Below, one piece after another: positions 1-59,878 of a stretch of DNA of 64,000 bases (position 1 is its first letter; each line of letters starts with the position of its first letter). The notes under the pieces are model-generated. The model was not told the origin of the DNA. It searched no databases and worked only from the letters and a program-made list of their open reading frames with translations. Source of the DNA: Eledone cirrhosa (lineage: Eukaryota). Position numbers and translations under genes: made by a program. The DNA lies in NCBI GenBank assembly GCA_964016885.1, contig OZ024748.1:35712001-35776000 (forward strand), in the 5' to 3' direction.

Positions 1-1137
1 TTATTCTCAATAACAATAATATTATTATTATTATTAATTATATGTTGGTTATAACTAAGAATTCTGCTATTTATTTTTGCAACATTTTGAGCCATATTCA
101 TAGTTGTTGAGTAAGATAGTTTAACTGTGTGTCTATTGAAGATAGAATAATATTTACGTGTTCTAGGGAAACATTTATCTAATGCTTTAAAAAATAATTG
201 TGCTAAAGGTGTTTTAATAGCTAAAGATGCAGGTGGGGCATACCAAATAATAGATCTAGTTCTAATTTTTTTCCCTGATTTATTCTCGAAATTGGTATTT
301 TTATTTATATTTTTTATTATTTTTATTTTTATTTTTATTTTTACAGTCTGTTTTATTTATATTATTCCTATTATTATGAATATTTAGTTTATAATTACAA
401 TTATTATTTTCTACATATTCAATATTATTTTTATATCCTGCTTTATGTAACGCTTCATTATAATATCCAGCTTTACTATTAAAAATGGATTTGTTAGCAG
501 ATAATTTAGTTAAACGTTGTTGAACACTATTGACTATTGCATTTTTAACACATTTAGGATGATTGGAATAAAAACTAACATAATTTAGGTTTTCATTGGG
601 TTTATGGAAGAGGTAATATAGGCCTTAGTTTAAATAAAGGGTTACGACTAGGAAGTTAACTATTTTACTGTTACTTTCTACTTCTAATTTCAGGTCGCAT
701 TTTTAAAGAATTCTATAATTATTTTCTTTACTCTATTTAATTCATTATTGCTATGTCTAACTACAGTAAATAATATATCATCTCTATATAAACCACCGGT
801 AATCTCCGGCAGTTTTCTATTTATCATATTAAGGATAAAAATTCCCAGAAGATCGGTAAACTGCGCAGAATCGGACGATCCCATGGTAATGTCGAAATTC
901 TTCTGCCTATCCGAACGAGTCCAAAAATCATTATTAAAGTTAATCAAGGTTCGCGTAGCCGCTAAATAATATTAATCTCCTCACTAGATAGATCAGTGTG
1001 TTTATATGCGTATGATTTTGCTTTATTCAAAAGGTTAGGAGTTATTGAGGTGAAGTAACTCGCTATGTCCATTTGAATAAATTTATGATTTTTCTTATTT
1101 TCAATGTTCTTAAACCAATCTATGACTTCACTAGGTT
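1..1137 (-). mobile_element. Decayed Penelope-like element (Hydra-clade-like) RT region
   Basis: ORF 690..947: FDITMGSSDSAQFTDLLG...GGLYRDD (RT motifs B/C); downstream KLSYSTTMN remnant near 70-125; same motifs as the elements at 32044 and 39253; abuts (TA)n. Confidence 0.85.
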
Positions 1138-1320
1138 ATATATATATATATATATATATAAATTGGAATAAATGCTCTGAAATAGCGATATATATGTGAA
1201 TATAGACATAGAATATTCGAAAATATTCTGTATGTTTATAATAAACATTTTGAAGACCTAATCGCTATAGAATAGAATACGTCACGTATTACAATTAGAT
1301 TCTCGATAAAAGCAAGGGAA

Positions 1321-1363
1321 GTAATCTACGCGTTTCATTCTTGTTAGAAATCATCAGGACTAC
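1321..1363 (-). ncRNA. Type I hammerhead ribozyme (family A)
   Basis: GTAGTC-CTGATGA-TTTCT aaca AGAAT-GAAA-CGCG-TA-GATTAC; stem I extended by TTCTCGATAAAAGCA/TGCTTTTATCGAGAA. Confidence 0.9.
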
Positions 1364-1630
1364 ATATCCAGTGCTTTTATCGAGAATGACACAGCTAGAG
1401 ACTTATAGAATACTTAGCTGTGTACAGGAACTGGTTTGAAAGAGCGGTTGCCGGTCCGGCAGAAATTAGAAATTGGAATAAATGCTCTGAAATAGCGATA
1501 TATATGTGAATATAGACATAGAATATTCGAAAATATTCTGTATGTTTATAATAAACATTTTGAAGACCTAATCGCTATAGAATAGAATACGTCACGTATT
1601 ACAATTAGATTCTCGATAAAAGCAAGGGAA

Positions 1631-1673
1631 GTAATCTACGCGTTTCATTCTTGTTAGAAATCATCAGGACTAC
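1631..1673 (-). ncRNA. Type I hammerhead ribozyme (family A)
   Basis: Same motif as 1321..1363. Confidence 0.9.
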
Positions 1674-1940
1674 ATATCCAGTGCTTTTATCGAGAATGAC
1701 ACAGCTAGAGACTTATAGAATACTTAGCTGTGTACAGGAACTGGTTTGAAAGAGCGGTTGCCGGTCCGGCAGAAATTAGAAATTGGAATAAATGCTCTGA
1801 AATAGCGATATATATGTGAATATAGACATAGAATATTCGAAAATATTCTGTATGTTTATAATAAACATTTTGAAGACCTAATCGCTATAGAATAGAATAC
1901 GTCACGTATTACAATTAGATTCTCGATAAAAGCAAGGGAA

Positions 1941-1983
1941 GTAATCTACGCGTTTCATTCTTGTTAGAAATCATCAGGACTAC
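1941..1983 (-). ncRNA. Type I hammerhead ribozyme (family A)
   Basis: Same motif as 1321..1363. Confidence 0.9.
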
Positions 1984-2250
1984 ATATCCAGTGCTTTTAT
2001 CGAGAATGACACAGCTAGAGACTTATAGAATACTTAGCTGTGTACAGGAACTGGTTTGAAAGAGCGGTTGCCGGTCCGGCAGAAATTAGAAATTGGAATA
2101 AATGCTCTGAAATAGCGATATATATGTGAATATAGACATAGAATATTCGAAAATATTCTGTATGTTTATAATAAACATTTTGAAGACCTAATCGCTATAG
2201 AATAGAATACGTCACGTATTACAATTAGATTCTCGATAAAAGCAAGGGAA

Positions 2251-2293
2251 GTAATCTACGCGTTTCATTCTTGTTAGAAATCATCAGGACTAC
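2251..2293 (-). ncRNA. Type I hammerhead ribozyme (family A)
   Basis: Same motif as 1321..1363. Confidence 0.9.
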
Positions 2294-2560
2294 ATATCCA
2301 GTGCTTTTATCGAGAATGACACAGCTAGAGACTTATAGAATACTTAGCTGTGTACAGGAACTGGTTTGAAAGAGCGGTTGCCGGTCCGGCAGAAATTAGA
2401 AATTGGAATAAATGCTCTGAAATAGCGATATATATGTGAATATAGACATAGAATATTCGAAAATATTCTGTATGTTTATAATAAACATTTTGAAGACCTA
2501 ATCGCTATAGAATAGAATACGTCACGTATTACAATTAGATTCTCGATAAAAGCAAGGGAA

Positions 2561-2603
2561 GTAATCTACGCGTTTCATTCTTGTTAGAAATCATCAGGAC
2601 TAC
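2561..2603 (-). ncRNA. Type I hammerhead ribozyme (family A)
   Basis: Same motif as 1321..1363. Confidence 0.9.
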
Positions 2604-2872
2604 ATATCCAGTGCTTTTATCGAGAATGACACAGCTAGAGACTTATAGAATACTTAGCTGTGTACAGGAACTGGTTTGAAAGAGCGGTTGCCGGTCCGGC
2701 AGAAATTGAATATTCTATGTCTATATTCACATATATATCGCTATTTCAGAGCATTTATTCCAATTTCTAATTTCTGCCGGACCGGCAACCGCTCTTTCAA
2801 ACCAGTTCCTGTACACAGCTAAGTATTCTATAAGTCTCTAGCTGTGTCATTCTCGATAAAAGCACTGGATAT

Positions 2873-2915
2873 GTAGTCCTGATGATTTCTAACAAGAATG
2901 AAACGCGTAGATTAC
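2873..2915 (+). ncRNA. Type I hammerhead ribozyme (family A, inverted arm)
   Basis: gtagtc ctgatga tttctaacaagaat gaaa cgcg ta gattac. Confidence 0.9.
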
Positions 2916-3182
2916 TTCCCTTGCTTTTATCGAGAATCTAATTGTAATACGTGACGTATTCTATTCTATAGCGATTAGGTCTTCAAAATGTTTATTATAA
3001 ACATACAGAATATTTTCGAATATTCTATGTCTATATTCACATATATATCGCTATTTCAGAGCATTTATTCCAATTTCTAATTTCTGCCGGACCGGCAACC
3101 GCTCTTTCAAACCAGTTCCTGTACACAGCTAAGTATTCTATAAGTCTCTAGCTGTGTCATTCTCGATAAAAGCACTGGATAT

Positions 3183-3225
3183 GTAGTCCTGATGATTTCT
3201 AACAAGAATGAAACGCGTAGATTAC
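3183..3225 (+). ncRNA. Type I hammerhead ribozyme (family A, inverted arm)
   Basis: Same motif as 2873..2915. Confidence 0.9.
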
Positions 3226-3492
3226 TTCCCTTGCTTTTATCGAGAATCTAATTGTAATACGTGACGTATTCTATTCTATAGCGATTAGGTCTTCAAAATG
3301 TTTATTATAAACATACAGAATATTTTCGAATATTCTATGTCTATATTCACATATATATCGCTATTTCAGAGCATTTATTCCAATTTCTAATTTCTGCCGG
3401 ACCGGCAACCGCTCTTTCAAACCAGTTCCTGTACACAGCTAAGTATTCTATAAGTCTCTAGCTGTGTCATTCTCGATAAAAGCACTGGATAT

Positions 3493-3535
3493 GTAGTCCT
3501 GATGATTTCTAACAAGAATGAAACGCGTAGATTAC
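3493..3535 (+). ncRNA. Type I hammerhead ribozyme (family A, inverted arm)
   Basis: Same motif as 2873..2915. Confidence 0.9.
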
Positions 3536-3647
3536 TTCCCTTGCTTTTATCGAGAATCTAATTGTAATACGTGACGTATTCTATTCTATAGCGATTAGGT
3601 CTTCAAAATGTTTATTATAAACATACAGAATATTTTCGAATATTCTA

Positions 3648-3678
<31 letters not shown>

Positions 3679-3685
<7 letters not shown>

Positions 3686-3910
3686 TAACAGATTAAAGTT
3701 TAAGCAAAGAATCGCTGTTTTCACCCTTAACGGGATCTTCTGAAACTAACCCTTAGTTTCAGAAGATCCCGTTAAGGGTGAAATCAGCGATTCTTTGCTT
3801 AAACTTTAATCTGTTATTTTAATAAATATTTGCTCTACGGTTCTTATATATTTGATATATATATTTATCCTTATCGAGCCCTCTTTGAATTTTAGTCTCC
3901 AAATTTATTA
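3679..3910. repeat. Family G fold-back insertion (pLTR-like) with variant HHRs at 3697..3747(-) and 3755..3805(+)
   Basis: ~70-bp inverted arms centred near 3751; AGTTT-CAGAAGA-TCCC gttaa GGGT-GAAA...TTGC-TT-AAACT; related copies at ~13400, ~29970, ~60770. Confidence 0.75.
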
Positions 3911-3914
3911 TTAT

Positions 3915-3962
<48 letters not shown>

Positions 3963-3965
<3 letters not shown>

Positions 3966-4871
3966 AGTGGTTACACAACAGTTAGTTCACCATGCCGAGA
4001 ACAATTATTTCACCTTAGCGGATCCTCAGCTTGTAATGGACATGGTTTTACGGAACAGGAAGGACAACCGTACGAACGCGCATGCGCAGAAACGATCACT
4101 TCACACAGGCAATACCAGGGTGCTCTTGCCGTAAGCCCGAAGCTTGTTCCCTTCAACAGCAATGCAACACACCCGCTGTAGTGTATGAAGCTGTGGTCAC
4201 TTCCAACCGACCAAATCAACCACAGGAGGTCAAATCCTATGTGGGTATGGCGGAGGGCCGATTTAAGGAACGCTTCCTGAACCACCAATCGACCTTTAGG
4301 TACCCGGACAGACGTTCATCCACGAAACTCGCGAGCCACGTATGGTCCCTCAAGGACTCAAGTATAGACTACGCCATTCAATGGAAAGCCATTACTAAGT
4401 CCAAGCAATACGCAAGGGGCAATCTGTCATGTGGACTATGTATTGATGAACGAATAAATATTCTAAAGAGATTACGCAATAGTGATTGCCTAAACACGAG
4501 AAATGAATTCTTCACACGTTGTCTCCACACGTCTGGAAACACCTTACATCACTACGAAGCTCCGGATTGAATTACAACACCATCCTAATTGTCTTATCAA
4601 CCAGAAACATTCGGAATTTCGCAGTTATCTCCCTTACAGTTGTCGCACGCAATTCAGTATTGCCTGTGTGAAGTGATCGTTTCTGTGCATGCGCGTTCGT
4701 ACGGTTGTCCTTCCTGTTCCGTATAACCATGTCCATTACGAGCTGAGGAACCGCTAAGGTGAAACAATTGTTCTCGGTATGGTGAACTAACTGTTGTGTA
4801 ACAACTTCTACCTAATTCGTCCCATGGACTGAGTGCTCTACCACTACGGATATTACCTTCCAGTGTTCTAC

Positions 4872-4992: not shown

Positions 4993-5071
<79 letters not shown>

Positions 5072-5477
5072 GCATACAGGTACACATACATATATGCACG
5101 CATCAGTTTAGCCGACGTTTATTATAACGCAGCTTTGTTCGCTTGTTTCTCAACAAACAGAACAGCCTGAATTTATGCCATACGGTGTTAAGGCAACCAC
5201 GTCACCTTTTTGTTCAACACTGACACAGGAACGATGTACTAGTTTCAAGCTTGTTAGCTATCATCAGATGGGTAAACGGTGCTGATGATAGCTAACAAGC
5301 TTGAAACTAGTACATCGTTCCTGTGTCAGTGTTGAACAAAAAGGTGACGTGGTTGCCTTAACACCGTATGGCATAAATTCAGGCTGTTCTGTTTGTTGAG
5401 AAACAAGCGAACAAAGCTGCGTTATAATAAACGTCGGCTAAACTGATGCGTGCATATATGTATGTGTACCTGTATGC

Positions 5478-5536
<59 letters not shown>

Positions 5537-5658: not shown

Positions 5659-5747
<89 letters not shown>

Positions 5748-5964
5748 CAAATAACGAAACGAAATTAAATTTCGTTTCGTTTGTAACTCACTTTTGTATG
5801 ACTGACGCTTAAACAATTAAGTTAAAAATGTACATCTACATATGCATACTGAAATACTAGTGTGTATATGAATACACACACGTATACATATGTAGGTGTA
5901 CCAAGTCTGTCACTGGTTTTTCGGGGGAACACCTTCCCCCTATTCTCCAGAAAGCCAGACAAGG

Positions 5965-6008
5965 AATATTGAACTAGTTTCGTTGTTGTTACAACTCATC
6001 AGCAATAT
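5965..6008 (-). ncRNA. Type I hammerhead ribozyme (family B)
   Basis: Reverse complement of the motif at 6463. Confidence 0.8.
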
Positions 6009-6462
6009 ATTGTTACAACAAAGAAACTAGTTCAATATTCCTTGTCTGGCTTTCTGGAGAATAGGGGGAAGGTGTTCCCGCGAAAAACCAGTATGACTCT
6101 AAAAACCGGTTTGTCTGTGTGTTTACATACAGAATAGCTGGGCCGCTCACTGTAAAGCGACCAGTGAAAGACTTGGTACACCTACATATGTATACGTGTG
6201 TGTATTCATATACACACTAGTATTTCAGTATGCATATGTAGATGTACATTTTTAACTTAATTGTTTAAGCGTCAGTCATACAAAAGTGAGTTACAAACGA
6301 AACGAAATTTAATTTCGTTTCGTTATTTGTTTTTATCGTCTCCGCTGAACCGGTGCGTACTCACACTCTATGCAAATTAGTCTGCCCACTACTAATTTTC
6401 ATAGAAAAAGCATATAACGATATGTGCTTTTACAATTCTCCAGAAAGGCCGGTAGATAGGTA

Positions 6463-6507
6463 AATATTGCTGATGAGTTGTAACAACAACGAAACTAGTT
6501 CAATATT
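6463..6507 (+). ncRNA. Type I hammerhead ribozyme (family B)
   Basis: AATATTG-CTGATGA-GTTGT aaca ACAAC-GAAA-CTAG-TT-CAATATT. Confidence 0.87.
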
Positions 6508-6930
6508 CCTTGTCTGGCTTTCTGGAGAATAGGGGGAAGGTGTTCCACCGAAAAACCAGTATGACTCTAAAAACCGGTTTGTCTGTGTGTTTACATACAG
6601 AATAGCTGGGCCGCTCACTGTAAAGCGACCAGTGAAAGACTTGGTACACCTACATATGTATACGTGTGTGTATTCATATACACACTAGTATTTCAGTATG
6701 CATATGTAGATGTACATTTTTAACTTAATTGTTTAAGCGTCAGTCATACAAAAGTGAGTTACAAACGAAACGAAATTTAATTTCGTTTCGTTATTTGTTT
6801 TTATCGTCTCCGCTGAACCGGTGCGTACTCACACTCTATGCAAATTAGTCTGCCCACTACTAATTTTCATAGAAAAAGCATATAACGATATGTGCTTTTA
6901 CAATTCTCCAGAAAGGCCGGTAGATAGGTA

Positions 6931-6975
6931 AATATTGCTGATGAGTTGTAACAACAACGAAACTAGTTCAATATT
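6931..6975 (+). ncRNA. Type I hammerhead ribozyme (family B)
   Basis: Same motif as 6463..6507. Confidence 0.87.
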
Positions 6976-7198
6976 CCTTGTCTGGCTTTCTGGAGAATAG
7001 GGGGAAGGTGTTCCCCCGAAAAACCAGTATGACTCTAAAAACCGGTTTGTCTGTGTGTTTACATACAGAATAGCTGGGCCGCTCACTGTAAAGCGACCAG
7101 TGAAAGACTTGGTACACCTACATATGTATACGTGTGTGTATTCATATACACACTAGTATTTCAGTATGCATATGTAGATGTACATTTTTAACTTAATT

Positions 7199-7257
<59 letters not shown>

Positions 7258-7372: not shown

Positions 7373-8040
7373 GTCAGTGTTGAACAAACGAGCAACGATG
7401 GTTGCTGGGCACTACTGTTTACAAACACACCGAGCATTATAATAAATGTTCGGTGAATCCATACGTACATATATATATATGTGTGCATGTATGTATATAT
7501 ATATATATATACTACTGTACGTCTGTATACATATATGTATGTACGTATACATACTTATATTTAAGTAACAGCCGTACTAAGAGTGGGAAATGAAATTTCG
7601 TTTCATTTTTCCGTTTATCGTTTTCGGTGCACCCGGCCGATTAACCCACTCGATATGCAAATTCGGCTACTCAGCCGTTAATATGCATAAGGTAAGTATA
7701 TACGTTCAGCAATCTGGCAGGAAGGTATACGTTGCTGACGATAGCTAATAAGCTTGAAACTAGTACAGCGTTCCTTTGTCAGTGTTGAACAAACGAGCAA
7801 CGATGGTTGCTGGACACTACGGCTTAATACGGGATGTTTGTTTACAAACACACCGAGCATTATAATAAATGTTCGGTGAATCCATACGTACATATATATA
7901 TGTGTGCATGTATGTATATATATATATACATACTACTGTACGTCTGTATACATATATGTATGTACGTGTACATATTTATATTTAAGTAACAGCCGTACTA
8001 AGAGTGGGAAATTAAATTTCGTTTCATTTTTTCCGTTTAT
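7373..8040 (+). repeat. Family C-related partial tandem (pLTR-like direct repeat, 7373-7618 / ~7778-8040)
   Basis: Direct repeat of gtcagtgttgaacaaacgagc...ccgtttat around a unique core carrying the HHR. Confidence 0.85.
7729..7771 (+). ncRNA. Type I hammerhead ribozyme (family C variant)
   Basis: ACGTTG-CTGACGA-TAGCT aata AGCTT-GAAA-CTAG-TA-CAGCGT. Confidence 0.85.
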
Positions 8041-8688: not shown

Positions 8689-8858
8689 TATAGATAGGTA
8701 AATATACACAGGTGTGTATGATTGTGTATAGAAGATTATATTAATAAGAGGAATTCCAACTTTGTCTGATTTACTCGTTTTATTTACAATCCTTTAAAAT
8801 ATATATAATGGTATTATAATGAAATAGTATGATAGAATATTAAATTCTAAGTGTTAAT

Positions 8859-8897
8859 TGAACAAGTACTTTCATGCTTTCGCAATCTTCAGGTTCA
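8859..8897 (-). ncRNA. Type I hammerhead ribozyme in the PLE 3' pseudo-LTR
   Basis: TGAAC-CTGAAGA-TTGC gaaa GCAT-GAAA-GTAC-TT-GTTCA, sense to the PLE ORF. Confidence 0.85.
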
Positions 8898-9271
8898 TGA
8901 TATGTGGTGACAGTCGAGTTTGCAATTTTCAACTGTAATGAGATGGGTAAATTTCCTACCTTTTATACATTTTATACAGAGAAAAGTGGCTCCAGAATGC
9001 AAAGCCCTGTAAACTGTATTTCGACCAATCAGTGTGTAGTTTCACTGAATTACTATAGCTGATTGGTTTAAGCGTCACGGCTGGTTGAGCATGCTAACGA
9101 CGAATAGTCATATCCAACGTATCAATTGTTTTGCTTTTTGAAATGATGAAAATAGCATTTTCTATTAATCATCACCATCAACATCACTTTTATTATTATT
9201 ATTATTGTTGTTGTTGTTGTTGTTAGTGGTCGTGGTCATAGTGGTAGTAGAAGTAATACCCCTAGGCGTTA

Positions 9272-11584
9272 TTATTGTTCATTTAGCTTGGGTTTGAATT
9301 TATCAATAAAATTCTTTTCTTTGATTTTTCTCTTGATTTCACTTGGGCTGTGTAATTTGTAGAATGGGAATATTATAAATATTCCCTGACCACATGTTGC
9401 CAGGTGGCCGCTTAGGGGTATCTGACGGACATTTGGGTCTCTGATTTGTTGACGGTGTACCCGTGCACGTTCCGATAGTGCATTTCCAGTTTGACCGACA
9501 TATAGTTCTTCACAATTCGGGCATTTAATGCAGTAAATTAGATTTCTGCTTTTGCTGTTCATATTTGCATTTGGGAATATTTTTCCAGTTTTTGTTTTCA
9601 TATATTGACCGGCGTGTATGGATTGACATGTGCCGCATCGATTATCATTGCATTTAGATACAGTGAATGATTGGTCTTTGTTGTTAAGGTCAAACTTTGC
9701 TTTTGTTAGCAATTGCTTCAAATTTTTTGGTTGTCTTTTACTAAGAGTCAAAGATCGATCTGTGATTAAGCCTTTTAATTCATTACTTTGAGCAATGATC
9801 GGTAGGTTTGCTTTGGCAGTGTTGAAGATATTCTGGTGACATGGGTTGTGTGTCATTATAAATGGTATGACCAGTTCTTGGTTTCTTCTTCCTTGGGTTG
9901 TTCTAAGTTGTTGTATAGGTATTTTTATAGCCCGCTGTATGCCATTTTCTATAAGTAGAGATGGGTATTTTTGTTTGAGCAAAAATTCTCTTAGTTCTGT
10001 TAGGCGTTTGTACCTGGTATTCGTATCTTCTACAATGGTACAAATTCTTCTGGCTAGGCAGTATGGGATGTTGCGTTTTGTATGAGGTGGATGGCACGAC
10101 TTAAAATTCAGATATTGATGGGTGTCTGTGTGTTTATAATATATATCCGTGGTAATGGTGGTGTCGTTTTTGATTATCATTATATCTAGGAATGGTAATT
10201 TGGTCCTACTCATCTCTTTTGTGAATTGGAGAGATGGGTGTAGGTTATTCAGGAGGATATTGAACTCATCCAGAGTATCTAGAGATTCTGTCCAGATGAT
10301 GAAACAGTCGTCAAGGTATCTCTTCCAAGATTTTTCAATGTACTTTCTAAAGTCAGTACTATATTTTTCCTCTATTTCTTGGTAGAGTTGTTGTTCTAAG
10401 TATCCCATTACAGAGTTCGCGTAAACGGGAGCAAACTTCGTTCCCATCGCTGTGCCTCTAATTTGGATGTAATTCTTTCCATTGAAGAAGAACGTGTTGT
10501 TTTCCAGAATAAGTTTAACTGCGTCTAATATAAATGGCGCTGTGAATCTAATGGGAATCACTTCTCTATGTTTTTCCACCCAGTATTTAACCGCCTTTAT
10601 TCCTAAATCATGTGTAATGTTGGTGTAAAGGCTTACCACATCAAAACTGAGTAGAAGTGAATTCGTTTCCGTGGTTTTGGGAAGATGGGACAGGAAGTCG
10701 ATATCATCGCGGATGAAACTGGGTATGTGAATACATAGTGGTTTCAAAATAATGTCAACAAAATTGCTTAGACGGTGAGTGGGGCATGTTGGACCAGCTA
10801 TAATAGGTCTAAGTTTTAAGTCTTTTGGGTGTAATAATTTAATGTACTCACTGTTTTGTTCTCTTACTGCCAGTTGTATTTCTTTTGACTTGTGAACTTT
10901 CGGTAGGCCATACAGGTTGCTGGGTTTCGGCTCAAAATTGGTGATGTAGTCTCTTTCCTTATCAGTAAATGAGTTGTGGTATTTTGAAGCCAGGTTGTTG
11001 ATCTTCTTCATGATGTTGTGGTCTATATTTGACGGTATTTCATGATAGAATGTTGTGTCTTTCAGTTGTTCCTCAACCAAATCCTTGTAGTATTCAGTAT
11101 CCATTATAACAACTGCACCCCCTTTATCTGCTTGTTTAATTATTATTGTTTTATCATTTTGTATACGTTTAAGTGCAGACATTTCTGATTTGTTAATGTT
11201 TGGTCTAACATTAGTATTATGTCTAAGAGGAAATTTAGACAGGATGTCAATGTATTGGTCGAGATAGATATTTCTTCCTTTTGGCGGAGTGAAATTTGAT
11301 TTATTCTTTACTAGTGATTCATCACTCTCATTATTTTTATCAGCGAAGAATTCTACAAGACGTAATTTTCGACAGAATTCTTGGGTATCCTCCTTCAGTT
11401 CTTGGTGGTTGACTGTTGGAGTCGGTGTGAATTTCAGTCCCTTTGACAGAATTTGCATTTCATCATTGTCAAGATCTCTTTTAGATAAATTAATTATTTT
11501 AGGATCTACGTGTACAGCTGTTTTGGGTATGTTTCCTCCTGGAGTTTTTCTTTTTCCGGTTTTTGTTGTCCTGACGTTAAAAAA
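9272..11584 (-). CDS. PLE reverse transcriptase + C-terminal GIY-YIG endonuclease (first Met at 11458; frame open to 11584)
   Basis: IINLS..LSKGLKFTP, ADKGGAVV, YGLPKVHK, LRPII, FDVVSLYTNI, GTAMGT, RYLDD, LPFLD, CNDNRCGTC linker, LIYCIKCPNCEELYVGQT; uninterrupted 728 aa. Confidence 0.95.
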   Translation of the reverse strand, partial: FFNVRTTKTGKRKTPGGNIPKTAVHVDPKIINLSKRDLDNDEMQILSKGLKFTPTPTVNHQELKEDTQEFCRKLRLVEFFADKNNESDESLVKNKSNFTPPKGRNIYLDQYIDILSKFPLRHNTNVRPNINKSEMSALKRIQNDKTIIIKQADKGGAVVIMDTEYYKDLVEEQLKDTTFYHEIPSNIDHNIMKKINNLASKYHNSFTDKERDYITNFEPKPSNLYGLPKVHKSKEIQLAVREQNSEYIKLLHPKDLKLRPIIAGPTCPTHRLSNFVDIILKPLCIHIPSFIRDDIDFLSHLPKTTETNSLLLSFDVVSLYTNITHDLGIKAVKYWVEKHREVIPIRFTAPFILDAVKLILENNTFFFNGKNYIQIRGTAMGTKFAPVYANSVMGYLEQQLYQEIEEKYSTDFRKYIEKSWKRYLDDCFIIWTESLDTLDEFNILLNNLHPSLQFTKEMSRTKLPFLDIMIIKNDTTITTDIYYKHTDTHQYLNFKSCHPPHTKRNIPYCLARRICTIVEDTNTRYKRLTELREFLLKQKYPSLLIENGIQRAIKIPIQQLRTTQGRRNQELVIPFIMTHNPCHQNIFNTAKANLPIIAQSNELKGLITDRSLTLSKRQPKNLKQLLTKAKFDLNNKDQSFTVSKCNDNRCGTCQSIHAGQYMKTKTGKIFPNANMNSKSRNLIYCIKCPNCEELYVGQTGNALSERARVHRQQIRDPNVRQIPLSGHLATCGQGIFIIFPFYKLHSPSEIKRKIKEKNFIDKFKPKLNEQ

Positions 11585-12398
11585 TTAATTTTTCTCTGTT
11601 CAGGATTTATATTCCTGTTGGTGTTCGCTTGATGAACTTTTGGTCGTGATATTATATTTGGTTTCGTTATGTATTTTGTCCTATTTTTGGTATTCTGTAT
11701 ATTATTTTTCTTCCTGTTAGCATTATTTTTAACAATCTGGGAAAATGACCTAGGTTTGCTTTCAGGTTTAGATCGTTTTTTCGTCCAGTTTCTTGTGGGC
11801 AATCTCTGTTGAGATCTTGAGAGTGATCTGGTTATTCTACGTTTTGTTTCCACATTCCTTGTTGGTAGTCTCTGTTGAGATCTTGAGAATGATCTCCTGG
11901 TTTTACTACTTCTCATGGTCTGGTCAAAGGAATACCTATCGTGTTTGTGCTTTTTGTTCATGTTGTGTGCGATAGGGTGTTTTTGTAGAAAAAGCGAAGA
12001 GTTATTACCGTAGTTCTTCTTTGATTCAAGGTAAGGTGAGTGTTTGTGTTGGCACGTGTTCTGGCGTATGTTGTGTTGATGAGATTGTCCACTTTTAATG
12101 CTTTTTCTCAGGGTTCCAGAGTCTTTACCGTAATTTGCAGCATATTCATCGAGAAATAATTGTTTCTGCTGCCATACCTTTCTTGATTTGTTTTCTTCTT
12201 TTGAGATATCTCCGATCCATAGTTCTCGTAGTTTTTCAGCTATAATACCAGTCGTTAGCTTTGAAATTTCAACTTCAATTTGGTCATCAATAGCTTCATA
12301 TTTGGCTTTGTAGCGGGATTGTTTACATTCAGAAATGGAGATGTCGGTCCTGAATTTTGGAGTTTTGTTTCTTCTCCTGGTTCTCCTGCAATTTCTGT
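11506..12398 (-). CDS. PLE ORF1-like basic/low-complexity protein, 5'-truncated
   Basis: ~300 open codons overlapping the RT frame by ~80 nt; 60-bp internal duplication (RSxSRSQQRLPTRN x2); the track's start in the TA/Helitron junction is spurious. Confidence 0.6.
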
Positions 12399-12433
12399 AT
12401 ATATATATATATATATATGTACACATATATATA

Positions 12434-13806
12434 CTAGCTGCACCGTCAGGCTGGTGCTCGGCTAGGTATACCGACATTTTATCTTTTCAGGAATCCCCCC
12501 TCCACTCCAGTGCAAAGATACCGCCCTCTCATGTCTGCGAGGTTGGGGTGGGGGGTTGGCGAGGGATTAACGTGCTCTGATGTTGGATTTGAATAGTTTT
12601 TAGGATTCCCCAGTTCAGCAGCCAGTACGTTAAAGATAATTGATAGTTACAACAATAAAGGCTGAACAGAGAACACATTTTTTAACAAACAATAATTTGT
12701 ACAACCATAATGGAAATTCAAAGTAACAGAAAATATTTAAATTACATTGTTAGAGCCTCAGAGTATACAATAGTTTTTGTTCGGCCCTCCGGAACAAAGA
12801 TGAAGAGATTGTTTGGCGAGCTCACCCTAGAGCATCCTACATACAATTGACCACGGGAGAAGCAGTGATCTCGTAGCTCGTCACGCGGAGAAGCTCTGTA
12901 GACGTTGACCTCTGGACACTCCTGTCAGGAGCAGGTAAGCTGTAATGACTTAGAGGCCTACCACCAATCTCCAGAACACTGTTTTCAAGACATTGAAATT
13001 GACATCGTATGTTACGTTCGGATTGTGTCTGTGTGTGCGGTGGAGGATGTCCGCAGCTAGACTTTCATGGTTGTTGTTCCACAGTGCGAGAGGGTCGGCG
13101 AGATCGCAATTGTGCAGCATAATAGCAAAAGGTTTTCGCAGCTGAGAAGAGACTTTAACAGTTGCTGCTTCTTGCAGGGTGAGGTGTCAATGGCTGTCAT
13201 CGTGTAACATACCACGCATCTGGCAAGCCAAACGGTAAGTGGAACATTGATGGCCATTGATGGTTCTCAGATCTTGGAAAGACTCTGGTCCTCTAACCTC
13301 GAACAGTAACAATGACGATAACCTGTCTGTGCTTTCGTGAAATAAATAGGGTTTTTGTTTTTGTGTAGGCAAAAATATCTGTACACGAATATATATATTA
13401 AAATAACAGATTAAAGTGTAAGCAAAGAATCGCTGCTTTCACCCTTAACGGGATATTCTGAAACTGAAAAAATCCGTCTTGAACGCAGAGTAAATATTTC
13501 GAAAAATGTTATCTAATGCAGACAGCCAGACATACAGAGACATAGAAAAAGAAGGGAATGTTGTGCGACGTCATAAGAAAAAGTGAGGAATGAAGTATAA
13601 CCGGAAGTGTTGACATTTGAAATTTTAAAGAAGTGAATATTTAAATAATGTCTTTAATATTTTAACAAAATTTAGTAGACAAAAATAGCCTCACTTTCTT
13701 ACTTGGAAAAAGTTATATCTATGGTGCAAATTAGGTGCTGTTTGGTCTAGCCGTTTGGCGGAAAGTTTGTTACCTATATACGGCCGTCAGCTTTATAGTA
13801 TATATA
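12434..13806 (-). mobile_element. Non-autonomous Helitron (internally deleted), copy 1
   Basis: 3' GC-rich hairpin + CTAG then T at 12434; RepHel remnants VRGPESFQDLRTING..YRLAC..GMLHDD and FSRGQLYVGCSRVSSPNNL (Pif1 C-terminus). Confidence 0.9.
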
Positions 13807-28925: not shown

Positions 28926-31531
<2,606 letters not shown>

Positions 31532-34619: not shown

Positions 34620-34691
34620 TGATCCCGACGTCATTCGAACACGCAGTCTTCTGAACTGGAGTCAGATGTGTTACCATTGCATCACATAGCC
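34620..34691 (-). pseudogene. tRNA-Trp(CCA) pseudogene
   Basis: 72 nt: ggctatgtgatgcaatggtaacacatCTGACTCCAgttCAGAagactGCGTGTTCGAATgACGTCGGGatca; anticodon arm and T-loop match eukaryotic tRNA-Trp, acceptor and D stems mismatched. Confidence 0.8.
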
Positions 34692-59170: not shown

Positions 59171-59878
59171 AAACAATTAAGTTAAAAATGTACATCCACA
59201 TATGTATACTGAAATACTAGTATGCATATGAATACACACACGTGTACATATGTAGATGTACCGAGTTTTTCACTGGACACTTTACTGTGAGTGTCCAGCT
59301 ATTCTGTATGTAAACACACAGACAAACCGGTTTTTAGAGTCATACTGGTTTTCGAGGAAACACCTTTCCTCTATTCTCCAGAAAGCCAGACAAGGAATAT
59401 TGGACTAGTTTCGATGTTGTTACATCTCATCAGCAATATTTACCTATCTTCCGGCCTTTCTAGAGAATCGTAAAAGCACATATCGTTATATGCTTTTTCT
59501 ATGAAAATTAGTAGTGGGCAGACTAATTTGCATAGAGCGTGAGTACGTACCGGTTCAGCGGAGACGATAAAAACAAATAACGAAACGAAATTAAATTTCG
59601 TTTCGTTTGTAACTCACTTTTGTATGACTGACGCTTAAACAATTAAGTTAAAAATGTACATCCACATATGTATACTGAAATACTAGTATGCATATGAATA
59701 CACACACGTGTACATATGTAGATGTACCGAGTTTTTCACTGGACACTTTACTGTGAGTGTCCAGCTATTCTGTATGTAAACACACAGACAAACCGGTTTT
59801 TAGAGTCATACTGGTTTTCGAGGAAACACCTTTCCTCTATTCTCCAGAAAGCCAGACAAGGAATATTGGACTAGTTTC
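59171..59878 (-). repeat. Family B diverged copy, ~1.5 tandem units
   Basis: Similar to 6011-7202; 59171-59410 repeated at ~59637-59878. Confidence 0.9.
59396..59440 (-). ncRNA. Type I hammerhead ribozyme (family B variant)
   Basis: AATATTG-CTGATGA-GATGT aaca ACATC-GAAA-CTAG-TC-CAATATT; compensatory stem II change relative to 6463. Confidence 0.9.

Follow-up and report, generated by a model that had tools for sequence, protein, structure and literature searches.

Near one end of the window (the whole 64,000-nt stretch of DNA analysed here) lie two adjoining tandem arrays of a single 310-nt sequence, facing in opposite directions, and the question they raise is by what process many copies of a short, non-coding, ribozyme-bearing unit could be laid down in both orientations at one site. 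TRF reported a repeat of period 310 at 1160-2707 (5.0 copies) and at 2708-3668 (3.1 copies), and comparison of one 310-nt unit with both arms gave 0 mismatches across 1548 (left) and 949 (right) bases, bearing out the original prediction of eight identical units, five running one way and three the other. The description of the array as non-coding likewise stands: no ORF of ≥80 aa overlaps positions 1160-3656. The unit (G+C 106/310) has no LTR structure, occurring as pure tandem copies bounded by TA tracts. Both arms face outwards and run out into (TA)n, and they meet at 2707/2708 with zero overlap and zero added bases. Numbering the unit from the first base 3′ of the predicted ribozyme cut (r1, window position 2910), the left arm has its outer (3′) end at r167, the long, tailed end, and its inner (5′) end at r170, while the right arm has its inner end at r109 and its outer end at r127, the short end. 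Coordinates of these and other features are collected in Table 1.

Table 1. Positions in the window of the two-armed array, of landmarks within one unit and of related elements
Feature	Positions	Strand	Remark
(TA)n target tract, left flank	1137-1160	.	From sequence
Left arm, 4.99 units	1160-2707	-	Ribozyme-sense on minus strand
Right arm, 3.06 units	2708-3656	+	
(TA)n target tract, right flank	3652-3680	.	
One hammerhead, type I	2873-2915	+	From sequence; predicted cut between 2909 and 2910
Predicted cut-to-cut monomer, 310 nt, 34% G+C	2910-3219	+	Candidate circular RNA
r13-28, one strand of the 16-bp stem extending helix I	2922-2937	+	Partner r250-265, at 3159-3174
Short 3′ end zone, r126-139	3035-3048	+	Terminates in the unit's own ATATATAT; putative RT start site 1
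Long 3′ end, r165-167	3074-3076	+	Putative RT start site 2
PLE with RT and GIY-YIG	9272-11584		Used as in-genome control
Short two-armed copy of the retrozyme family, in a (TA)n tract	30511-30746	.	No hammerhead

Eight hammerhead cores are present in the array (five on the minus strand, three on the plus strand), one per full unit. Helix I is GUAGUC/GAUUAC, the core CUGAUGA lies at 2879-2885, helix II consists of a U.U followed by 4 bp and an AACA loop, with GAAA next, and helix III is the palindrome ACGCGU. Cutting is predicted between GUA and GAUUAC, on the plus strand at 2909/2910, 3219/3220 and 3529/3530 and at five further sites on the minus strand. The canonical metazoan type I hammerhead is described in PMC4209133 as having a helix III of 1–2 bp with a palindrome, which it folds using a second copy, and the minimal hammerhead (min-HHR) of Penelope-like elements (PLEs) as having no helix III, a helix II of 7–8 bp and a helix I of 4–5 bp. 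With a helix I of 6 bp plus a long extension, a helix II of 4 bp and a palindromic helix III, the window ribozyme is, on its sequence and by those definitions, canonical metazoan and dimer-type, not a PLE min-HHR; the ‘complete minimal type I’ motif called initially is therefore type I in 8/8 full units, but not minimal. Rfam gave no hammerhead match to the unit at gathering score, nor any among 150 of the 171 matches at E≤5. Closing helix III inside one copy has a modelled cost of 5.2 kcal/mol, against −7.5 kcal/mol for the two-copy duplex, and predicted self-cleavage is correspondingly poor for a monomer and plausible for a dimer. The monomer fold was better than 100/100 shuffles (z −4.4 linear, −4.6 circular), and 60% of the circular fold is paired. 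All five pairs of complementary segments that had been listed for the unit are present, although the extension of stem I proved to be 16 bp rather than 15 bp.

The unit belongs to a large family. A 32-base core pattern had 4,584 exact matches in the 3.0-Gb assembly (reversed control, 0), a count that takes in some haplotypes only, and doubling the forward junction count suggests at least 1,300 loci. Approximately 85 of these were sampled, all but two on contig C1, where they were fetched by three routes: every cluster found in the first 100 core matches, places matching a long-end pattern taken in order along the contig, and eight short-end places without a listed partner. Arms were mapped to the unit by script. 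L061 (L060 again, across a gap), L033 (which contains a gap) and two inner L042 fragments were left out.

Outer 3′ ends occupied two fixed places in the unit. In the first batch of 92 arms, 48 ended at r118-139 and 44 at r165-170, with 0 elsewhere; genome-wide, TA junctions on the forward strand numbered 638 at r165-167 and 1,188 at r126-138 (a pattern that also picks up some internal r131 variants), compared with 4 and 2 matches in all for control 30-nt windows after r206 and r46. Reverse-strand counts were inflated by overlapping matches. Each of the 74 complete two-armed loci (43 + 24 + 7) had one short and one long end, and whereas 18 of them (L042-L059) had been fetched with both ends already listed, for the other 56 only one end was known in advance. 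The resulting tail measured 26–35 nt in most loci and was one-sided in 74/74. A further ten loci were single-armed (five with the short end, four with the long end and one ending at r120), and at L158/L193 one arm was still open past 35 units; L033 runs into its gap. The short copy at 30511 had been thought to use another register; its outer ends are in fact the family's usual two, short on the left and long on the right, and its two arms have in common the variant r126 A>C.

The inner 5′ ends of 156 arms, on the other hand, showed a uniform spread over the unit (chi-square p 0.35), with no pile-up at the ribozyme cut (4/156 within 5 nt of the site, 5.5 expected), and this scatter is ordinary 5′ truncation. 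Arm ends had originally been predicted to be permuted, with no fixed ends genome-wide, and this holds for the inner ends but not for the outer ends. Random permutation of the latter is ruled out by the two fixed end sites. Arm lengths fit an exponential distribution with a mean of 5 units (KS p 0.20). Where two arms meet, they mostly share 0–5 bases or are separated by a few added bases, and at L047, L049 and L171 the 16-bp stem r13-28/r250-265 serves as the joint. At nearly all loci the outer ends meet (TA)n; the L034 insertion lies in plain AT-rich DNA. A target-site duplication would be masked by a (TA)n target.

The two-armed insertions have the published footprint of PLE insertion, of which the inversion is a part and no peculiarity of the window locus. 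Insertions of EN+ PLEs are reported to carry an inverted, 5′-truncated copy and to target (TA)n (PMC8557442, including the legend to its Fig. 2), with a tail of 30–40 bp, often at one end only (PMC8557442), and a 31-bp tail has been described on one of two inverted pLTRs (PMC3846280). Purified PLE protein, a predicted dimer, cuts and extends both target strands; its two start sites lie next to each other inside the RNA and set the limits of the tail, and it can dispense with hammerhead cleavage (PMC11167929). The 26–35 nt separating putative start sites 1 and 2 of the unit is a tail of the PLE type. A control was available in the window itself, in the form of a PLE with a GIY-YIG domain above the Pfam cut-off and an RVT_1 domain just below it, tentatively assigned as Neptune-like from the CX4CXXC linker in its sequence. 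This element is young, its 150 best matches being 97–100% identical and many of them having 775-aa open frames. Fourteen two-armed copies were fetched, and one short and one long end, approximately 55 nt apart, were found in 13/13 of those with both ends visible. A BLAST search with the 310-nt unit, covering 872 kb of masked loci and 60 loci from two PLE families, showed no similarity to either family and no pLTR match, the only matches being to sister retrozyme families; the control PLE therefore demonstrates the end rule, not partnership. Movement of the retrozyme by PLE machinery is nevertheless regarded as very probable. One sister family, older than that in the window (~320 nt, copies 94–96% alike), can be aligned to the whole 310-nt unit, best over r128-200, and it too terminates at both homologous end sites (its end calls are noisy and were left uncounted), so that r128-200 is likely, from these alignments, to be the region recognised by the enzyme.

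As the family is young, numerous and marked by haplotypes, each locus reports the template copied by each of its arms. Among 71 loci of ≥3 units there were 31 haplotypes, 24 of them seen once, and nearly every locus carried a single haplotype through all units of both arms. The arms of one locus shared their haplotype in 32/35 loci whose arms each comprised one unit or more, compared with 10.6% of between-locus pairs. Moreover, 16 variant columns, in 14 loci, were fixed in every unit of exactly one sampled locus (‘private’ is used here for variants private within the ~85 loci sampled); L036, for example, has a 2-bp deletion in 22/22 units, and L067 has r210 C>A in 17/17. A new change could have entered all units of both arms only by repeated reading of a single monomer. 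At L176/L192, both arms carry two units of one haplotype followed by another, which fits both primers having followed one series of templates, whether by a joint template switch or on a chimeric linear RNA, and L070 is unmirrored, with AAAAGG at r276 in one arm and seven G in the other. Minority variants were largely confined to one unit (53 single-unit variants against 10 common to several units in the first batch), and this predominance argues against gradual expansion at the DNA level. Some DNA-level duplication does follow insertion, as seen in the periodic shared variants of L036 (7 units apart), L037, L051 and L158.

The reading preferred here, and considered probable, is that a PLE enzyme copies one circular monomer by twin-primed rolling-circle synthesis from two neighbouring start sites. 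A retrozyme array would be transcribed as a multimer, which paired hammerheads are predicted to self-cleave into 310-nt monomers, and a monomer would be ligated into a circle. A Penelope-type enzyme would then cut a (TA)n tract on both strands, and the two DNA ends would be primed on the one circle, with starts 26–35 nt apart (r126-139 and r165). How many turns each primer made would be a matter of chance (mean 5, up to >35), after which the cDNA ends would meet and be joined at the centre of the insertion, often via 1–5 shared bases or the unit's 16-bp stem. Cleavage, circle, helper enzyme and twin priming would in this way lie behind the observed architecture, ends, haplotypes and target. 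The original prediction had likewise proposed a retrozyme mobilised by a PLE and copied round a circular monomer, and in this it is supported by the end rule, by the haplotypes and by the exactness with which the cut site is crossed: 452/455 crossings were exact, two of the remaining three representing one duplicated substitution and the third an arm end.

Against copying of a circle stand the mirrored mosaics (L176/L192 and L078), which suit a linear multimer equally well, the unmirrored L070, the weak monomer hammerhead, the failure of most frog retrozyme dimers to cleave (below) and the lack of similarity between the unit and the two PLE families searched. Were PLE twin priming to use as its template a long read-through transcript, linear and made from a master array in the genome, unit order would be mirrored in both arms, as it is at those loci, and the weakness of the monomer hammerhead and the dispensability of its cleavage in vitro (PMC11167929) would cause no difficulty. 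One would, however, expect approximately 19 mirrored single-unit variants under such a template, if its sources were average-mutated, and one was seen (L078) in addition to the L176 block. The columns fixed throughout all units of 14 loci and the lack of a 5′ pile-up at the cut site also weigh against it, as does the need for >35 consecutive uncleaved ribozymes at L158/L193, and a linear multimer is thus judged unlikely. Less likely still is a short PLE-type insertion, of 1–2 units per arm, that expanded later. Local DNA amplification is favoured for retrozyme tandems in the text of bioRxiv 10.64898/2026.07.22.740005, where unequal crossing-over or slippage is proposed, and the periodic variants noted above do show local duplication, yet later expansion would have to accommodate the excess of singletons, the smooth exponential arm lengths and arrays that are long but only ~0.03% diverged, and it leaves the mirrored switch at L176/L192 unexplained. 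If anything slightly more doubtful again is a template consisting of the cleaved linear monomer, with the enzyme jumping precisely from the 5′ end of that monomer to the 3′ end of the same molecule. Such jumping accounts for homogeneous arrays as well as a circle does, and the L176/L192 switch might be a jump onto a second molecule, but it would have to be made without gain or loss of bases at 452/455 junctions and without stops accumulating at the cut site, and circles are documented for coral, mussel and axolotl retrozymes (PMC7229834).

Self-priming has been proposed for PLE inversions (PMC3846280), and a second arm made by fold-back on the first cDNA would have its haplotype in common with that arm; the unit is self-complementary, and the joints that run through the 16-bp stem are of the kind expected. 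A copy cannot outgrow its template, though, and the long-end arm was the longer in only 23/43 loci, with arms of 3.2 and 18.9 units at L036. Because either arm may be the longer, fold-back is very improbable, and the arms are moreover joined at differing registers and form no perfect palindrome. An artefact of assembly or of chimeric reads is scarcely credible as the source of the array or of its inversion. Identical units do leave unit counts uncertain, through possible mis-assembly, but the 74 loci have distinct flanks, unequal arms, a fixed short/long rule and locus-specific haplotypes; the last cannot be made by polishing. In addition, the head-to-tail joint of the unit was present in contigs of 4/4 sequencing runs, from four studies, and run X2 contained a TA junction at r139 as well as hundreds of variant contigs. 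Six listed runs hold the unit, none of them on record as RNA; contigs of X1, X3 and X6 are single closed 340-nt loops, although tandem DNA would look alike. A metagenome scan for the core returned 0 stretches.

Judged by sequence, the family is a young non-LTR retrozyme, a known class, and agrees with metazoan non-LTR retrozymes in every sequence-level criterion by which these are recognised. Like those of coral, mussel and axolotl (PMC7229834, PMC7761336), it consists of ~300-bp, AT-rich, non-coding, self-paired tandems whose units each bear a canonical type I hammerhead, has thousands of copies and shares its genome with PLEs, and the 310-bp unit falls within the range of 150–450 bp and G+C <45%. 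Axolotl Amex1 is described as having a palindromic, weak helix III and Amex2 as having a basal U.U in helix II; the window unit has both. In the text available, the papers on those retrozymes describe head-to-tail tandems only, whereas here there are an inverted second arm, a tail, a target and per-locus haplotypes. In that text ‘inverted’ occurs 0 times in PMC7229834 and ‘tail’ 0 times in bioRxiv 10.64898/2026.07.22.740005, and no description of two-armed, tailed retrozyme insertions or of per-locus retrozyme haplotypes was found in the open-access main text searched. A sequence link to PLE pLTRs is reported for 24/57 Xenopus retrozyme families, in contrast to none here with the two PLE families examined. 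Of nine frog retrozyme dimers assayed in vitro, one cleaved and eight did not (bioRxiv 10.64898/2026.07.22.740005). Help from PLEs and circle-templated cDNA appear as hypotheses in the Discussion of PMC7229834, in PMC7761336 and in bioRxiv 10.64898/2026.07.22.740005.

With EN+ PLEs (Penelope/Poseidon, Neptune and Naiad) the family shares an inverted, 5′-truncated copy, a one-ended tail, an AT-rich or (TA)n target and two fixed internal 3′ ends, and it operates in the manner of a non-autonomous PLE; unlike them, it has no ORF, both of its arms are multimeric, reaching tens of units, and its hammerhead is canonical rather than minimal. Chlamys MRC1, a non-autonomous element treated in PMC8557442, comes from a green alga and has 3′ similarity to autonomous families, and the text there describes no hammerhead circle for it. 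The PLE papers, as far as their text goes, present the tail as optional or often one-sided, whereas a strict pairing of one short with one long end was counted here (74/74 for the retrozyme and 13/13 for the control). Inversion also arises in LINE-1 twin priming, in which a single RNA is primed by both target strands, the second primer using a variable upstream site so that nothing is duplicated. Here, by contrast, both starts are fixed, 26–35 nt apart, and the arms repeat the same sequence.

How PLE copies come to be inverted, with a tail on one side, is treated as an unsettled question in PMC8557442 and PMC11167929. To that problem the present family brings a counted end rule, evidence for one template per two arms and a one-monomer bottleneck, and it preserves with unusual clarity, in the genome, the trace of a mechanism that has until now been a hypothesis. 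It would also illustrate rolling-circle gene insertion as it occurs in nature, and its 310-nt unit, on which both putative start sites are mapped, could serve as a defined substrate for purified PLE protein.

When 12 lineage-defining variants were set aside, 24 array-fixed substitution events on distinct backgrounds could be counted, with direction polarised by the window's allele: 14 were A>G, 2 were T>C and 8 were other changes. A>G was more frequent among array-fixed events than among singletons (14/24 versus 6/71, p 2e-6; nine loci affected by alignment noise, and calls ≤12 nt from arm ends, were excluded from the singletons), and its excess over T>C had p 6e-4 by events and 0.05 by sites. 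Two positions in UAG context, r20 and r276, each recurred on four backgrounds. Given this polarisation the bias is a lead; it possibly reflects A-to-I editing of paired RNA, and editing of mussel circles has been raised as a possibility (PMC7229834); tolerance of G-U pairs together with template switching would account for it in part. A more specific version of circle copying, to which we give somewhat less than even weight, is that a dimeric PLE holds both ends, starts them at the two fixed sites of a ribozyme-made circle and rolls both together, through a shared change of template in the case of L176/L192, writing A-to-I edits of the one circle into all units. If true, this would explain inverted PLE insertions and their one-ended tail in a single step, and would mean that edits made in RNA become heritable changes in a repeat family.

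Among array-fixed substitutions, pairing was kept in 10 and broken in 5, and the catalytic core was struck in 0, compared with 8, 31 and 3, respectively, for single-unit substitutions (p 0.002). Within the ribozyme, array-fixed changes were located at the free core position r284, in loop 2, at r287 and at wobble-compatible sites in helix I, the change at r287 converting the U.U to A-U.

The hammerhead repeats share the window with several Penelope-like elements (PLEs), one of them young and tentatively labelled Neptune-like. Its reverse transcriptase (RT) and GIY-YIG endonuclease are encoded in a single frame of 770 aa, upstream of which lies a frame of 326 aa broken by a TA run; a hammerhead of the minimal type is found within the element, at position 8892, and its 3′ ends are two in number, spaced about 55 nt apart. 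Many copies in the same genome keep open frames of 775 aa, and this coding capacity suggests that the element is probably active. Coordinates are collected in the table below.

Further features in the window and in stretches fetched from the same genome (L handles)
Feature	Location	Strand	Remarks
PLE RT and endonuclease fragments	1-1137	minus	frameshifted; …YRDD… motif
Short fold-back elements (two)	3680-3860; 30930-31350		inside (TA)n
PLE, 5′-truncated	3962-4870		GIY-YIG-like frame 4037-4570
Third hammerhead-bearing family	5060-5480; 7375-8040		core CTGATGATAGCTAACAAGCTTGAAAC; fold-back layout
Second retrozyme family	5744-7203		468-bp unit; two-armed, inside (TA)n
Neptune-like PLE (label tentative)	8690-12486	minus	young; RT+GIY-YIG
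tRNA-like sequence	34620-34691	minus	Rfam 31.5 bits, barely over cut-off
Sister of the 310-nt family, older	L186:170-980; L200-L229		unit ~320 nt

The 5′-truncated PLE belongs to an older family (top matches 78-90% identical in amino acid sequence) and is flanked on both sides by inverted pseudo-LTRs with hammerheads, with a tail at the right end; its GIY-YIG-like frame found no match in Pfam. The frameshifted fragments adjoin the 310-nt array, with a TA run in between, and comparison of the two found no similarity.

In the 468-bp family the outer ends lie about 68 nt apart, one per arm; its fold z is −11.4, and Hammerhead_HH9 of Rfam matches the unit only weakly (38.6 bits, against a cut-off of 52). 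A further copy was seen at about position 59433. The third family has a palindromic helix III and a loop 2 of the same type. Each of the two short fold-back elements has unequal ends, the excess being about 40 nt at 30930-31350, and these elements are the same PLE footprint on additional families. The sister family uses the same two 3′ end sites as the 310-nt unit; its ribozyme-like core reads UUGAUAA…GAAAC where the 310-nt unit has CUGAUGA, and positions 3 and 8, which pair, are occupied in the sister core by U and A.

The exact 310-nt unit was also present in three sequencing runs (X1, X3 and X6) bearing three other organism labels, in each as a single unbranched, closed contig of 340 nt at a depth of 10-15, which would fit traces of host DNA as well as a free circle. 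At L037 the two arms are separated by a captured, unrelated stretch of 272 bases (L037:2599-2870), which may reflect template switching or a repair patch. At L158/L193 (G000:C1:97461500-97472500) a single arm comprises >35 near-identical units over >11 kb, both lower bounds, since the arm has not ended where the fetched stretch stops. The tRNA-like sequence is perhaps a SINE head or a pseudogene.
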